Shown here: positions 14,587-54,301 of the stretch, one piece after another
How positions within the stretch are numbered: position 1 is the first letter of the stretch
Layout of the letters: each line of letters starts with the position of its first letter
From: Candidatus Heimdallarchaeota archaeon
GTDB lineage: Archaea > Asgardarchaeota > Heimdallarchaeia > Heimdallarchaeales > Heimdallarchaeaceae
DNA: 64,000 nucleotides
NCBI GenBank assembly: GCA_019057375.1
Contig: DXJF01000097.1
Coordinates: 1 to 64,000 of the forward strand
Direction of reading: 5' to 3'
Notes under the pieces: generated by a model
The model's input: only the letters and a program-made list of their open reading frames with translations
What the model was told of the DNA's origin: nothing
Database searches by the model: none
Program-made: the position numbers and the translations under genes

Positions 14587-14701
14587 TGGTGCGGGGAGGG
14601 AGATTCGAACTCCCGAACCACTAAGGAACGGATGTCCCATCTAGCCAATGACTCTTGATAGATCTTGAGTCCGTCATCGTTGACCACTTGATTATCCCCG
14701 C
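14587..14701 (-). tRNA. tRNA-Leu(CAA) with 30-nt intron at 37/38
   Basis: GCGGGGA/TCCCCGC acceptor; ACGGA-CTCAAG[intron]A-TCCGT; BHB helix CTCA/TGGG; long variable arm; ACCA. Confidence 0.95.
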
Positions 14702-49565: not shown

Positions 49566-49607
49566 TGGTGCGGGGAGGGAGATTCGAACTCCCGAACCAC
49601 TAAGGAA
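49566..49607 (-). repeat. Copy of tRNA-Leu 3' exon, interrupted by TnpB-like element
   Basis: 42/42 identical to 14587-14628 (Leu-CAA), 40/42 to Leu-TAA; continuation CGGATG is at 51647-51652. Confidence 0.95.
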
Positions 49608-51646
49608 AGGTGTTTTTTTATCGTGTTTAAATATCAAATTACAGATATAAAAGTGATGAATTCTGTGCTTGTAAAAGATCTCGAAGAAGAAAAGGAAGTT
49701 CAAAAAACCTATTCCTTAGTTCTTAGATTTCAAAATCTAGCACAAAGAAAAGAAGCTAACCATCGAGTCAGCGATTTAGAAGATAAACAATCACTATTAC
49801 TATATGATACTTCTACTCAAAAAATTGCAAGAGATTTAGCTCGCGAAAATCCAAATGTTTCATTTCCTATTTCTAAAATCCAAAAATCTTCGAGGAGCAG
49901 TTCAAATATCTCTTTCAGTGCTTATAATTGGTTGTTTGCAGCATCAAAAGTGTCTGTTGATAAGGAAAAGAAAGTAGCTGATTTATTCCAGTTTCTGTTA
50001 CAAAATCCACAGCAAGCAATTGAATGGGTGATTCTTGGACGTTCTCCCTATACTGAAATTTCTCTTTCGAAGAAATGGAGAGTAGATTATGTATATGTTA
50101 TAAATCTCTTGACAAGTACTAGACGAAAAACTAACACTTATTGGAAAAAGAATTTTACTATGAGCTTTAAAGAAAAGCAACTAGAGTTCAATTCAAAGCT
50201 TCCAAAGACAACACAATTTGAAGTTGAACAAGCAATACAAGACTGCTATGAAGTAAAGGTAGAAGAGTATGCAAAATTGAAGAAAACTACTGAAAAACAA
50301 TATACTTTTCTTGATAAATTAGCTTTGGTAGTGAAACATAAGTATGTTATAGCTCCATATGTAACTTCTTGGATTAATCTTTCTCAAAAAGCTCGGTGGA
50401 AAAGCTTAAAGCAACTGAGTAAACAACTTGCTGAAACGATTGGTCAAATCAATGAAAAACTCCATTCTACAATAAGATTGATAGTAGTTTTTGCACTCTT
50501 CTCAAAACTGTGGGGGACTGTATCTAAATTAATTGATTCAACTAATCCAGAAGAAGTTGTAAGTTCTCCGTTTGAAAGAAAAAAAGCGAATTTACCAATT
50601 AAAATGTTAATGAAACATGAATATGACATAATTCGACCTGGTAACTCTCAAAAGATGACACAACTTGCTAAAGAACAAGGATGCTTTGAACTTGGATTTC
50701 CATGTAAAGGAAAAAAAAGAATAACAGGTAATCTTCTGTTTACAGAAAAAATTATCGAATATCTGAAAAATGGTGCTAGTGTAAGAATCTTACAAATTAA
50801 AAGTGGAAAAGCTCCTAACTACAAACCCAAGATTTCAGTTGTTCTTCATGGTACTCCTAGCATGTTTGTGAGCACCAAACTAGCACAAAAATATGCTAAC
50901 AGTATGAATCTCACTGCTGCTAATATCTTAGGGCTAGATGTCAATAGAGTAGGAAAACACATGTTGTCGTTCTCTAATGAAGTTCCATTGGATTCTAGAT
51001 TGAGATCTTTATCAAACCATTACCTCTCCTTAACAAGAAAAGAAATTCCAAGATTGAGTAACTCACTAAAAACTAAAGGTAAGCAAAAAGATAGTTATGG
51101 TTATATTAAAACAAAGGGTGAGCTAAATAGGATATATAACAAAAGAACTAATATAATTAAGGAAATTAAGAGAATAATACCACATTACATTGCGGGAGTT
51201 ATTATCAAGAGTAAGTGTAAATTTTTTTGTATAGAAGAGTTTCGTAAGAATCCAAGAGGGAAAAGAGGTGCATTAGCAAAAGCAATATACAACATGCCTT
51301 ACGAAGACAATATTTTTGAAAAAGCAGTCCAGATTGCGACTCACATTCTTAGTTATAAAGTGAAACTTGTATATGTAAGTGCTCGTAACACAAGTAAATA
51401 TCATTATAGTTGTAGAGGTGTGATTCAAAGAGATCTTAAAAATTATGATTATGCTCTCTGTAAAAAATGTGGTGAACGAGTAAATACACATATTAATGCT
51501 GCTAAAAACATTGCGAAGAAAGGAGAAACAATAATAAAGCAAATCAAGCTTCCCCTAGACGCCGCTAAGGGGACGGGGTAAATAAACCCCTCAAGTAAAC
51601 CTAAAGTTTCTACGAGAACCTAGTAAACTTCATTACGTGCGTGGAA
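49608..51646 (+). mobile_element. Transposase-less element encoding a large TnpB/Cas12f-like protein, inserted in a tRNA-Leu 3'-exon copy
   Basis: Excision restores ...CCACTAAGGAA|CGGATG; GGAA at 49604-49607 and 51643-51646; 3' GC-rich hairpins. Confidence 0.8.
49623..51581 (+). CDS. Large (641-652 aa) TnpB/Cas12f-like RuvC protein; alternative ATG start at 49656
   Basis: RuvC-I ILGLDVN, RuvC-II FFCIEEF, VSARNTSK, zinc finger HYSC...CKKC, RuvC-III VNTHINAAKNI (Asp replaced by His). Confidence 0.85.
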   Translation: MFKYQITDIKVMNSVLVKDLEEEKEVQKTYSLVLRFQNLAQRKEANHRVSDLEDKQSLLLYDTSTQKIARDLARENPNVSFPISKIQKSSRSSSNISFSAYNWLFAASKVSVDKEKKVADLFQFLLQNPQQAIEWVILGRSPYTEISLSKKWRVDYVYVINLLTSTRRKTNTYWKKNFTMSFKEKQLEFNSKLPKTTQFEVEQAIQDCYEVKVEEYAKLKKTTEKQYTFLDKLALVVKHKYVIAPYVTSWINLSQKARWKSLKQLSKQLAETIGQINEKLHSTIRLIVVFALFSKLWGTVSKLIDSTNPEEVVSSPFERKKANLPIKMLMKHEYDIIRPGNSQKMTQLAKEQGCFELGFPCKGKKRITGNLLFTEKIIEYLKNGASVRILQIKSGKAPNYKPKISVVLHGTPSMFVSTKLAQKYANSMNLTAANILGLDVNRVGKHMLSFSNEVPLDSRLRSLSNHYLSLTRKEIPRLSNSLKTKGKQKDSYGYIKTKGELNRIYNKRTNIIKEIKRIIPHYIAGVIIKSKCKFFCIEEFRKNPRGKRGALAKAIYNMPYEDNIFEKAVQIATHILSYKVKLVYVSARNTSKYHYSCRGVIQRDLKNYDYALCKKCGERVNTHINAAKNIAKKGETIIKQIKLPLDAAKGTG

Positions 51647-51666
51647 CGGATGACTTATTATTTTAA
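51549..51666 (+). ncRNA. Putative omegaRNA scaffold (to 51646) plus guide (from 51647)
   Basis: Hairpins TCCCCT/AGGGGA (51551-51573), GGGG/CCCC (51575-51590), TTCT/AGAA (51608-51618), imperfect terminal hairpin 51629-51646. Confidence 0.6.
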
Positions 51667-51710: not shown

Positions 51711-51812
51711 TGGTGCGGAGAGGGAGATTCGAACTCCCGAACTACAAAGGAACGGATTTCTTATCTATTCTCTAACCCTTATCTTAGGTTTAAAACTAAG
51801 ATCTTAAGTCCA
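51711..51812 (-). repeat. Diverged partial tRNA-Leu(TAA) copy (anticodon stem, intron, 3' exon); att-like
   Basis: Colinear with 54173-54275; BHB preserved; no D arm or 5' acceptor strand. Confidence 0.92.
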
Positions 51813-51860: not shown

Positions 51861-52739
51861 ATGTCTAGTAAAAATTGGGACACTGTAATAGAGTTACTAG
51901 AAACAATCACGCCCTCATATTACTTAGAAAAGGAGCTTAAAGCTACATTCAAATCTAATCTCCAATATAGAATAGGAAAATACTCTGAGAATTGTCGATA
52001 TTTCTTTCAGGAAGGTTTCGAAAAAAAATATTCAAATATTATTCCATCAGCAATAATTGTACCAAGGAAGTCAGGAACTAATATAAGCAAAATCGCAAAT
52101 GAAGCTGTTATATATTTTAAACAAAGCTTGGAATTGTTTAAAACATTGGATAACGTTGAAGAAAATGTGAGTCCATTATTGGAATATTATGGATTATTAC
52201 AATGTGTTAAGGGAGTAGTAATTTTAGAATTAGATGTGAAAAGTGACAAGATATTTAGTAAGCATGGTTTAACTCAAGAAACAAGATTTCATTCAAAAAT
52301 AGATGAACCAAAATCAACAAAAAAATATAAACTAAAAATGATTAAGAGAATTAAGCCATCAAAATATATCAACGCTAAAATTATGCCTTATGGTGTTTTA
52401 ACATCTTTAATCATTCGTTTCACAGATCATTATGATGAACTTTATTCTGACAGAGACATATACAAAATAAGTAAGCATTCTATGGATAAATACGTAACAG
52501 GATACTATAGACCTTCATTAGAAGAAATAACAACCAATCATCATGTAGATCCAATAATTGCTTTCATAGGTTCTTGGATGTTATCAACATTGGTAAGATA
52601 TAAAGCAAAAATGTGGCAAGAAATATGTTTGGGAGAAAAAGATGACATAATAAATAATATTAGAAAATTTAGGAGGGAAAAAATACCTAAAGCAGTAGAA
52701 ACTATGCTAATGGATTATGTAAGAAAGAGCTCTTGGTAA
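51861..52739 (+). CDS. YaaC-like protein
   Basis: YFKQS...VSPLLEYYGLLQCVKG...HGLT; C-terminal SWMLSTLVRYK..W. Confidence 0.6.
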   Translation: MSSKNWDTVIELLETITPSYYLEKELKATFKSNLQYRIGKYSENCRYFFQEGFEKKYSNIIPSAIIVPRKSGTNISKIANEAVIYFKQSLELFKTLDNVEENVSPLLEYYGLLQCVKGVVILELDVKSDKIFSKHGLTQETRFHSKIDEPKSTKKYKLKMIKRIKPSKYINAKIMPYGVLTSLIIRFTDHYDELYSDRDIYKISKHSMDKYVTGYYRPSLEEITTNHHVDPIIAFIGSWMLSTLVRYKAKMWQEICLGEKDDIINNIRKFRREKIPKAVETMLMDYVRKSSW

Positions 52740-54172: not shown

Positions 54173-54301
54173 TGGTGCGGGGAGGGAGATTCGAACTCCC
54201 GAACTACTAAAGAACGGATGGCTCATCTGACTTCTAACCCTTATCTTAGGCATAAACCAAGATCTTAAGTCCGCCGCCGTTGGCCACTTGGCTATCCCCG
54301 C
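54173..54301 (-). tRNA. tRNA-Leu(TAA) with 44-nt intron at 37/38
   Basis: GCGGGGA/TCCCCGC; GCGGA-CTTAAG[intron]A-TCCGT; BHB helix CTTA/TGAG; ACCA. Confidence 0.95.

Follow-up and report, generated by a model that had tools for sequence, protein, structure and literature searches.

Both Cas12 and the Fanzor proteins of eukaryotes descend from TnpB, the natural role of which is believed to be that of keeping transposons in place by cutting the emptied site. Two other ideas are needed to follow what is described here. The first is the synthetic cleave-and-rescue (ClvR) gene drive, in which a nuclease is aimed at an essential gene and a linked, recoded copy of that gene resists the guide; the second is the proposal, reportedly made by Randau and Soll, that tRNA introns or split tRNAs protect against integrative elements. 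This report deals with a TnpB/Cas12f-like element of 2039 bp that, as judged by synteny, interrupts a tRNA-Leu(TAA) gene in the genome of Candidatus Heimdallarchaeota archaeon (NCBI GenBank assembly GCA_019057375.1). The element lies in the first 64,000 nucleotides of contig DXJF01000097.1, which is the whole stretch of DNA that was analyzed; it will be called the window, and all positions are numbered on it. The assembly is 89% complete and is coded G000, and other genomes carry codes of the same kind (G028, for instance).

Among published systems, the closest analogue is the homing guide that directs type V-K CRISPR-associated transposons (CASTs) to tRNA genes. A search of the full-text literature for TnpB together with Asgard, Heimdallarchaeota, or tRNA genes gave no description of tRNA-interrupting TnpB elements with spare tRNAs. 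Asgard genomes are known to hold aCas1-associated TnpBs, in which a variable stretch past tnpB is preceded by one conserved T (PMC10691335), and these will be compared with our family at the end of this report.

On balance, we lean toward reading the locus as an RNA-guided, transposase-less TnpB/omega-RNA element that homes to tRNA genes and is accompanied by a guide-mismatched spare tRNA, within an Asgard-specific lineage that has IS607-type distant relatives. What is new here is the empty site in sister genomes, the presence of same-site elements in three other species, the retention of a guide-length stretch, the assignment of protein domains from structure, and the family tree.

The Interrupted tRNA-Leu(TAA) Locus

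The left side of the element is marked by a piece of tRNA-Leu on the − strand (49566−49607, L42), the + strand of which corresponds, in reverse complement, to the CCA-bearing 3′ end of tRNA-Leu(CAA), an intron-bearing gene at 14587−14701 (−), with 42 of 42 positions identical and no shuffled sequence matching. The tRNA-Leu sequence resumes as CGGATG at 51647−51652, and deletion of 49608−51646 restores 48 of 48 nt; the exact 42-nt copy, its continuation at 51647, and the 48-nt rebuild that the original prediction had reported were all reproduced. GGAA stands at both junctions (49604−49607 and 51643−51646), as had also been noted along with insertion at GGAA/CGGAT in tRNA-Leu sequence, so that each boundary of the element (49608−51646, +) can be shifted to the left by up to 4 nt. 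The 42-nt piece is identical at 40 of 42 positions to the genome’s own tRNA-Leu(TAA), and close copies of it begin at 51711 and 54173.

The identity of the target comes from related genomes. With the upstream bactofilin-like gene (48502−49407) as query across the genus, nine sister genomes (G028, G026, G024, G017, G025, G020, G039, G035, and G022) were found to carry an intact intron-bearing tRNA-Leu(TAA) at the syntenic site, where the element is missing and the order is bactofilin-like gene, a conserved spacer of ∼190 nt, tRNA-Leu(TAA), and the Asp/Asn-tRNA synthetase gene. Our sequence without 49608−51646 is collinear with these nine loci along the left flank, which natively lies downstream of tRNA-Leu(TAA), over the 42 nt, across the junction, and for ∼19 nt more (CGGATGACTTATT.TTTT), past which 46 AT-rich nt are unrelated to the sister alleles. 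From this synteny and collinearity with the empty alleles, the element is an interruption of a resident tRNA-Leu(TAA) locus, which the sister genomes indicate to be the sole tRNA-Leu(UAA) gene; its insertion point is 6 nt inside the 3′ exon, and it runs antisense to the tRNA. The empty allele that was to be looked for in related genomes therefore exists, with the predicted junction.

The original prediction had placed the insertion in a copy of a tRNA-Leu 3′ exon; the tRNA-Leu sequence and the GGAA/CGGAT junction stand, and the target is the resident tRNA-Leu(TAA) gene rather than a copy of tRNA-Leu(CAA), a stray or spare copy of the CAA 3′ exon being ruled out by synteny. The 42-nt piece looked like a CAA copy because it carries the CCACTAAGGAA spelling, which is shared by the tRNA-Leu(TAA) genes of G017, G025, and G039 and by the genome’s own tRNA-Leu(CAA). 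As for the AT-rich spacer after the guide-position segment (51665−51710), its relation to the tRNA gene is undetectable: the idea that it is a decayed remainder of that gene was rejected, the local alignment being no better than those of shuffles (p = 0.53).

The spare is an intact tRNA-Leu(TAA) with a differently spelled intron, downstream at 54173−54301 (−), detected by Rfam (tRNA, 44.2 bits) and by ARAGORN (anticodon taa with intron), and it is the sole UAA isoacceptor among the 41 tRNAs detected in the assembly. It adjoins the Asp/Asn-tRNA synthetase gene (54386−55699), as the resident gene does in the sister genomes.

The site is also occupied in other species. At the same flank, G030 and G031 carry proteins that are 60−62% identical to ours, with the left tRNA piece eroded to 12−16 nt and the guide-length stretch retained. 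G031 and G038, whose proteins are likewise 60−62% identical, have the same arrangement as ours, namely ∼20 nt of tRNA-Leu after the right end, a spacer, and a full tRNA-Leu(TAA) 20−60 nt further. The question raised earlier of whether homologs also sit at this tRNA-Leu site is therefore answered by three other species (G030, G031, and G038). This tRNA-Leu subclade is present in 4 of 25 genomes and is absent from the closest relatives (95% flank identity).

The order of the pieces is consistent across assemblies. Among public contigs assembled with k = 31 from the likely source sample, a marine sediment metagenome, the last 30 nt of the 42-nt piece are joined to the element, and the left flank is joined to its first 28 nt; the independent assemblies of G030 and G031 have the same flank-to-element order. 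These contig joins and the assemblies of two other species make a misassembly across the 42-nt repeat unlikely. No contig of three runs spans the element and no variants were seen in them, a contig-level blank that carries no weight. Among public sequencing runs, one DNA run, possibly that of the source sample, was listed as containing this stretch, and no RNA run was.

The Encoded Protein

The sole long open reading frame (ORF) of the element (49623−51581, +) codes for 652 amino acids from a GTG, or 641 from the ATG at 49656. This ATG sits 23 nt past a TTTAAATA box (49626−49633, +), itself inside a left-end motif, TTTTATCGnGTTTAAATA, that is kept upstream of paralogs and orthologs; the box and the N-termini of homologs make the ATG the likely start, hence a TnpB-family gene of 641 residues at 49656−51581 (+), and the box is likely to function as an archaeal promoter. 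A single RuvC gene of ∼640−650 aa, with no transposase, integrase, or CRISPR array, had been predicted from the sequence, and this is what was found: no transposase or integrase gene adjoins the element, and no CRISPR or tandem array is present in 40−64 kb, where the repeats are tRNA pieces alone.

Profile searches recognize a limited part of the protein. The sole Pfam domain detected is PF07282 (Cas12f1-like TNB domain; 27.6 bits versus a cut-off of 26.3), and the NCBIfam model NF040570 (guided_TnpB) scores 28.9 bits, below its cut-off of 100 and over the C-terminal 235 residues only. The AlphaFold 2 (AF2) model, built from 25 homologs with a predicted local distance difference test (pLDDT) value of 84, finds its best structural match in AsCas12f (8dzj; Z 13.3, 364 aligned residues, Foldseek E 8e-10), and ISDra2 TnpB (8h1j; Z 12.1 over 331 aa), ISFba1 TnpB (8iaz; Z 11.1), and Un1Cas12f (7c7l) are also matched, in alignments that span residues ∼24−640. 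As modeled, the protein is of the TnpB/Cas12f fold over its full length, with a WED-REC-RuvC-TNB architecture and a split RuvC: a WED strand at 26−35, a helical REC at 39−306, WED again at 326−410, and RuvC at 433−640. The extra size is accounted for by the ∼270-aa, all-helical REC lobe. The earlier description of an oversized RuvC protein with a long unrecognized N-terminus is right about the size, and the alignment and model add the fold; the N-terminus itself is recognizable in the model as a WED strand followed by an enlarged REC lobe.

The RuvC-I Asp439 (GLDVNR) and the RuvC-II Glu538 (CIE) are conserved in the alignment, as is a Zn ribbon of the H/C3 type (H594/C597/C613/C616). In RuvC-III, a nearly invariant His623 (VNTHxNAAxNI) replaces the Asp, and the D-E-D triad is incomplete. 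Branches of TnpB with this RuvC-III Asp-to-His change have already been catalogued, some of them confined to archaea, and conserved rearrangements of the kind are regarded as probably active; the survey in question makes no mention of tRNA (PMC10691335). His623 therefore marks a variant and does not exclude membership in TnpB. The suggestion that the family is an intermediate clade between TnpB and Cas12 was not borne out, given that no CRISPR array is present, that an IS607-type TnpA is linked to a distant relative, and that Asp-to-His branches are already on record (PMC10691335). Among the same-site orthologs of four species, the ratio of nonsynonymous to synonymous substitution rates (dN/dS) is 0.11−0.18, indicating purifying selection.

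Five relatives (P0083, P0087, P0103, P0105, and P0139) are 1,200−1,800 aa long, with the family region at the C-terminus and 570−1,100 preceding residues that fall in no Pfam family and give weak MazE-like matches; Pfam found no recombinase domain in them. At codons 16−21, the TnpB gene of our element holds TTCCTTAGT, the sense sequence of the tRNA-Leu exon-2 start, possibly by chance, and the stretch concerned (49702−49720) forms a 19-nt inverted repeat, 79% complementary, with 49599−49617 at the junction between the tRNA piece and the left end.

The Right End and the Candidate Guide

Past the stop codon, 29 loci of the family share one plan: a CCCCT...AGGGG hairpin, one or two further stems, and a terminus ending in ...TTCATAACGTGCG, after which similarity stops abruptly. 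In our element, the corresponding region is 51549−51641 (+), with two G+C-rich hairpins that span the stop codon and a right terminus ...CTTCATTACGTGCG, the last seven nucleotides of which, ACGTGCG, occupy 51635−51641 (+). The loop of hairpin 1 can pair with the seven final nucleotides of the right terminus in a 7-bp pseudoknot. In the family alignment, 95% of the cells of this pseudoknot are paired and 5 of its 7 pairs are changed on both sides, as in the variants CGCACGT/ACGTGCG, CGCATAC/GTATGCG, TGCACGT/ACGTGCA, and CACATGC/GCATGTG; four of five measures of the whole structure were reached by none of 500 shuffles. These features point to a right end with the architecture of a TnpB omega-RNA, the guide of which would start directly past the terminus, and such an RNA may be transcribed by the element. 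The prediction of a TnpB/Cas12f-like gene with an omega-RNA-like 3′ end thus finds support both in the protein fold and in a conserved right end with a compensated, family-wide pseudoknot. Further copies of the right end (...GGCAAGTTTAACCAAGTTTCATAACGTGCG) occur off the ten full genes of the genome, at C7:12648, C40:131, C65:8498, C81:24727, and C124:13433, and may be solo omega-RNA-like ends, truncated elements, or copies at contig edges.

What stands at the guide position (51642−51664, +) is a T followed by GGAACGGATGACTTATTATTTT, collinear with the empty alleles and antisense to the start of exon 2 and the 3′ end of the intron of tRNA-Leu(TAA); after ...ACGTGCG and the T, the sequence GGAACGGATGACTTATTATT is this antisense stretch. 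A stretch of ∼20 nt, the length of a guide, has been retained in three diverged copies while the adjoining sequence was lost. The segment lies antisense to pre-tRNA-Leu, and the GAACGGAT within it recurs in all tRNA-Leu(CAA/TAA) genes.

Over 20 positions, the candidate guide matches the uninterrupted alleles of G028 and G024 at 18 and that of G017 at 16. In its own genome, it matches the spare tRNA-Leu(TAA) at 13 of 20 (mismatches at 1, 11, 14, and 17−20), the partial tRNA-Leu(TAA) copy at 15, and tRNA-Leu(CAA) at 13, and no other site exceeds 16. A similar picture was obtained for the guides of G031 and G038, which match their own spares at 14−15 of 20, with the first mismatch at position 10, and some element-free alleles at 17−18. 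For the paralogs, a short-query BLAST of the 32 nt past each right end, in search of second genomic targets, gave tRNA matches and chance-level matches alone.

The original prediction had placed a target-adjacent motif (TAM) near (A)GGAA, and this part is probably wrong. Directly at the right end, the four bases are spelled as in the tRNA of the host, being AGAA in G031 and GGAA in G038 and in our genome, and this covariation implies that they derive from the target and are neither part of the element nor a TAM. The target matched by the guide thus probably begins with (A)GGAA. The sequence on its 5′ side is AC(C/T)ACTAA in every allele.

Recurrence at Other tRNA Genes

The association with tRNA genes is a recurrent property of the family, seen with tRNA-Val, -Asn, -Cys, -Ser, and -Leu, as the idea of a tRNA-associated element had implied. 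In the element’s own genome, 7 partial-tRNA pieces lie outside the 41 tRNA genes, 4 of them within 600 nt of family elements. Across the family, right ends abut pieces of tRNA-Val(GAC), tRNA-Val(CAC), tRNA-Asn, tRNA-Cys, and tRNA-Ser, each time with an intact tRNA of the same identity nearby. Two cases in our genome show the layout in full. Contig C65 has a 52-nt, intron-less 5′ part of tRNA-Val(GAC) directly at the right end, an intron-bearing tRNA-Val(GAC) upstream, 127 nt from the left end, and the corresponding 3′ piece 2 kb further. On contig C145, the right end abuts a 5′ half of tRNA-Val(CAC) that ends in the anticodon loop, with the full tRNA-Val(CAC) upstream and the 3′ piece, overlapping by 5 nt, 1.5 kb further. 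In other genomes, the right end is followed by a piece of tRNA-Asn, tRNA-Cys, or tRNA-Ser, and the intact counterpart is always within ∼130 nt. The spare tRNA may be upstream or downstream and in either orientation, and the tRNA-Asn piece is in sense orientation. Altogether, in at least six tRNA contexts, at differing tRNA positions and in both orientations, the tRNA sequence begins 0−1 nt from the conserved right terminus.

These loci are related to each other, so the counts are descriptive and were not made into a test. Ungapped scoring of 20-mers from the right flanks against 51 tRNAs gave a background of 12−14 of 20, and because of this high background, longer matches and manual maps were relied on for recognizing tRNA-derived guides; Rfam at a permissive threshold detected full tRNAs alone and no partial pieces.

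The ordinary TnpBs of the same genome (17 copies) are away from tRNAs save one. This ORF (1673−3007, start likely near 1794; PF07282, 55.7 bits) is directly downstream of, and on the same strand as, a tRNA-Val(TAC) at 1651−1728, and a tRNA piece past its 3′ end is not evident.

A few other loci of the family deserve description. At L010 (G000:C117, element 13445−15316), a direct repeat of ∼20 nt with the core GGCACCTCTGAAT, which is not a recognizable tRNA piece, occurs ∼100 nt upstream of the gene and ∼25 nt past the right end. L024 (G039:C136) has, ∼200 nt upstream of its gene, a 17-nt piece resembling a tRNA 3′ end (TGGTGGCTGGACTGCAA) and, ∼52 nt past the right end at the contig edge, what resembles the start of a tRNA (TGGTGGCCGGACCGTGATTTGAA), and this order of left piece, element, and full tRNA is as at our locus. 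L071 encodes a 48%-identical homolog in another metagenome-assembled genome, with a full tRNA-Ser(GCT) in sense orientation 90 nt upstream (4688−4767) and, past the right end (6828−6845), the antisense of the tRNA-Ser 5′ end; the spare and the broken piece are mutually inverted, a layout that duplication by a single crossover cannot yield. Directly downstream of the tRNA-Val(CAC)-associated element, L002 (G000:C145) has a below-threshold match to the archaeal H/ACA RNA HgcG at 1029−1315 (42 bits versus a gathering score of 77, E 2.6e-8).

Distribution and Mobility of the Family

Our genome holds ten full copies, 43−46% identical to the one described here, in addition to fragments. The family is present in 24 of the 24 other genomes of the genus and in both genomes of the sister genus, whereas in the rest of the phylum its members are rare and divergent, which makes the family, by these sequence searches, nearly confined to one Asgard genus. 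Among 1.84 billion representative proteins, 456 match the family profile, and the named homologs come from Heimdallarchaeota and Thorarchaeota metagenome-assembled genomes.

In a quick tree of the family, the elements at tRNA-Leu, tRNA-Asn, and tRNA-Cys are each monophyletic and all fall within one of two major branches, and the other branch is made up of many similar copies, mostly at non-tRNA sites.

No transposase stands beside any member examined, and neither our element nor 40 related loci have a TnpA of the MerR-helix-turn-helix (HTH)/resolvase type. In front of one distant homolog, P0054 (24% identity), lies a MerR-HTH plus resolvase gene of the kind that is the hallmark of IS607; since P0054 is the only such case, our element is at most a TnpA-less derivative of IS607. 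The original prediction had suggested mobilization in trans; in the 89%-complete genome, Y1 TnpA (PF01797) gave no match, control genomes having given matches, and no MerR-type IS607 TnpA was found; four small unlinked resolvase (serine recombinase) ORFs lack an N-terminal MerR domain. The genome has one ordinary Cas1, away from these genes.

Neighboring Genes and a Second Partial tRNA

Beyond the spacer is a second partial tRNA-Leu(TAA) of 104 nt (51711−51814, −), which keeps the 3′ exon, the intron, and the start of the anticodon stem, lacks the acceptor and D arm, and is 86% identical to the full gene over 101 nt. Between it and the spare are the genes, at 51861−54165 (+), for a YaaC-like protein (292 aa, PF14175) and a CPBP-type intramembrane protease (447 aa, PF02517). 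The module as a whole (51711−54301) is therefore flanked by a 101-nt direct repeat with 86% identity, formed by the partial and the full tRNA-Leu(TAA). Across 24 genomes of the genus, no ortholog of the YaaC-like gene exceeds 45% identity, neither gene has a close ortholog there, and in G031 the module is absent from this site. The module resembles what a separate integration event would have left behind at this tRNA.

Proposed Mechanism

If the reading that we favor is right, the omega-RNA guide would be the ∼20-nt stretch of the broken tRNA-Leu(TAA) gene, and the TnpB, with its D-E-H RuvC site, would cut uninterrupted tRNA-Leu(TAA) alleles that match this guide. Repair of the break from the element-bearing copy would amount to homing, by which the element could maintain itself and also pass into related genomes through this conserved tRNA site. 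The spare would escape through its mismatches to the guide from position 10 or 11 on, which are in the intron, the sole part that is free to vary, and the spare tRNA-Leu(TAA) would keep the cell alive. The direct repeats of the tRNA 3′ part around the element, guide, and spacer would allow loss by recombination, which fits the patchy presence of the subclade. In this scheme, activity, TAM, and mobility are inferred.

A wider proposal, which we regard as possible and decidedly more doubtful, is that the family is a natural RNA-guided system that cuts an essential tRNA gene and keeps a resistant copy. In such a system, each lineage would pass on a guide directed at a single tRNA gene (Leu, Cys, Asn, Val, or Ser), would home into new genomes, and would be tolerated by means of a linked spare that is mismatched in the intron or in a stem, with tRNA introns acting as escape sequences.

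Several observations weigh against homing by a guide-directed element. The sampled loci are related, and their counts overstate independence; moreover, about two thirds of the sampled family members are away from tRNAs. No TnpA was found in the element or, as tested, in the genome, and the 4-nt junction repeat (5 nt at tRNA-Val(CAC)) is not usual for insertion by IS605 or IS607. With regard to recognition, no shared motif that could serve as a TAM was seen in the left flanks of paralogs or in the 5′ contexts of the tRNA targets, and the gap between the matches to the spare (13−15 of 20) and to the sensitive alleles (16−18 of 20) is modest. With regard to the RNA, the tRNA-Leu subclade (ours, G031, and G038) has the hairpin loop GACGCCGC, with which only 4 of the 7 pseudoknot pairs can form and for which no alternative register was found in the subclade, and the single-sequence fold of our copy is no better than those of shuffles (z = −0.86). 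The RuvC-III Asp is replaced by His throughout, although active branches with this change are presumed elsewhere (PMC10691335). Finally, the two other partial tRNA-Leu pieces and the accessory module mean that this tRNA has also been hit by other integration events.

Alternative Explanations

Some of these points would suit an inert relic, namely an old TnpB insertion in a displaced and non-functional tRNA-Leu 3′ fragment, the att remnant of integrase-type elements for which this tRNA was a repeated target, with the guide-like stretch as leftover flank and nothing acting on tRNA genes today. The region does have three tRNA-Leu 3′ copies and an accessory module between 101-nt repeats of 86% identity, the element has no transposase, the pseudoknot is weakened in the subclade, and the left piece is eroding in G030 and G031. 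Still, we think this explanation unlikely: the intact ORF evolves under purifying selection in four species, the guide position was kept over ∼20 nt in three diverged copies as its surroundings were lost, the left flank is the one that adjoins the tRNA gene in the sister genomes, which makes the piece the resident gene’s own end, and the layout recurs at other tRNAs.

An equally small probability is given to a domesticated RNA-guided DNA binder of the TldR or Cas12m kind, in which the His would abolish cleavage and the tRNA-derived guide would bind tRNA-Leu genes (all of which have 9−10-nt seed matches) or the pre-tRNA, tuning expression or processing. The Asp-to-His change is invariant in the family, purifying selection has long kept the protein at one locus in several species, the guide runs antisense to pre-tRNA-Leu and has GAACGGAT in common with all tRNA-Leu(CAA/TAA) genes, and exapted TnpBs are known (PMC10691335). 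Set against this, D439 and E538 are still present, other nucleases of the RNase-H fold use His as a metal ligand, and conserved Asp-to-His branches of TnpB are considered probably active (PMC10691335). The presence of the subclade in 4 of 25 genomes is patchy, unlike a fixed host function; the sister clade, with many copies at varied sites, is like a mobile element; and orientation to the tRNA is inconstant, the Asn piece being in sense. In terms of the features that matter for a TldR-like protein, one of three catalytic residues is changed, the C-terminus is complete, presence is patchy, and the guide matches the body of a tRNA gene rather than a promoter.

Less probable again is an integrase-driven island, in which a tyrosine or serine integrase acting in trans would insert at tRNA genes, the TnpB would be cargo, and its contact with the tRNA would be a by-product. 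Archaeal integrative elements commonly target tRNA genes, which speaks for this explanation, as do the att-like tRNA 3′ direct repeats that flank both the element with its spacer and the YaaC/CPBP module, and the four small serine recombinase genes elsewhere in the genome. One att core, however, would not give tRNA contexts, at least six of them, that start 0−1 nt from the TnpB right terminus; here, both tRNA pieces touch the ends of the element directly, and no integrase gene is in or beside the loci examined.

An assembly artefact, in which the 42-nt repeat of the tRNA-Leu genes falsely joins the bactofilin flank to the element, has next to no probability: the k = 31 contigs of the likely source run do break inside the repeat, but they carry 28−30 nt of it joined to each side, reads longer than 42 nt resolve it, the G030 and G031 assemblies have the same order with 12−16 nt of it left, and the right flank matches the same tRNA locus.

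All four are rated below the homing, spare-protected TnpB element on account of the purifying selection, the retention of guide length, the junctions at the element’s own ends at several tRNAs, and the independent assemblies.

Comparison with Known Systems

The locus ties a TnpB lineage of the archaea closest to eukaryotes to essential tRNA genes, with occupied and empty alleles both at hand in sister genomes, and the linked tRNA copy departs from the guide in the intron alone, the one part of a tRNA gene in which variation is free. With an active enzyme, the locus would be a natural test of tRNA genes as homing sites for RNA-guided elements and of the long-standing idea that tRNA introns shield tRNA genes from mobile DNA, and it would also offer a compact archaeal nuclease of ∼640 aa with an enlarged REC lobe, a D-E-H site, and a candidate guide and target that are already defined. 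Should the enzyme prove inactive, the locus is still a record of the breaking and replacement of tRNA genes in Asgard genomes.

Compared with the TnpBs of IS607 and IS605 (OMEGA systems), our element has in common the fold of the whole protein, the TNB/Zn-ribbon motif, the RuvC-I Asp and RuvC-II Glu, and, as predicted for the family, a putative structured RNA that overlaps the 3′ end of the gene, with a pseudoknot before the candidate guide and the right flank at the guide position; the link of a distant relative to a MerR-resolvase TnpA is a further likeness to IS607. It differs in size (∼640 aa versus ∼400 aa), in its ∼270-aa REC lobe and RuvC-III His, in having no TnpA in the element or, as tested, in the genome, in its 4-nt junction repeat, and in having as target an essential tRNA gene with a spare copy beside it. 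Cas12f (type V-F) is the best structural match and of a similar size class, but our element has no CRISPR array, tracrRNA, or adaptation genes, and its guide would be a single fixed stretch derived from the flank.

Like the homing guides of type V-K CASTs (Cas12k), the system proposed here would combine a TnpB-derived RNA-guided protein, a mobile element, and a dedicated guide to a tRNA gene as a conserved attachment site (bioRxiv 10.1101/2021.02.06.429022). The CASTs, however, insert downstream of the tRNA without breaking it, whereas ours interrupts the tRNA gene with a second copy present, and they employ Tn7-type transposition proteins, a nuclease-dead Cas12k, and a CRISPR-type guide (bioRxiv 10.1101/2021.02.06.429022). 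The aCas1-associated TnpBs (Cas1H-Asgard-1/-2), compared by description, are likewise an Asgard-specific TnpB lineage, and most right ends of our family are also followed by a T; our genes differ in having no aCas1 beside them, and the downstream GTTCACTCA motif reported for the aCas1-associated group was not seen (PMC10691335).

With archaeal integrative elements, our element shares a tRNA gene as landing site, partial tRNA copies left behind, and a difference in intron spelling that coincides with a mismatch to the invader’s recognition sequence; unlike them, recognition would be by a guide RNA rather than by the att core of an integrase, and no integrase is present. The design of ClvR drives follows the same logic as the one proposed here, from which our locus would differ in being a natural, unproven case, linked to a tRNA gene and with its protective difference in the intron.

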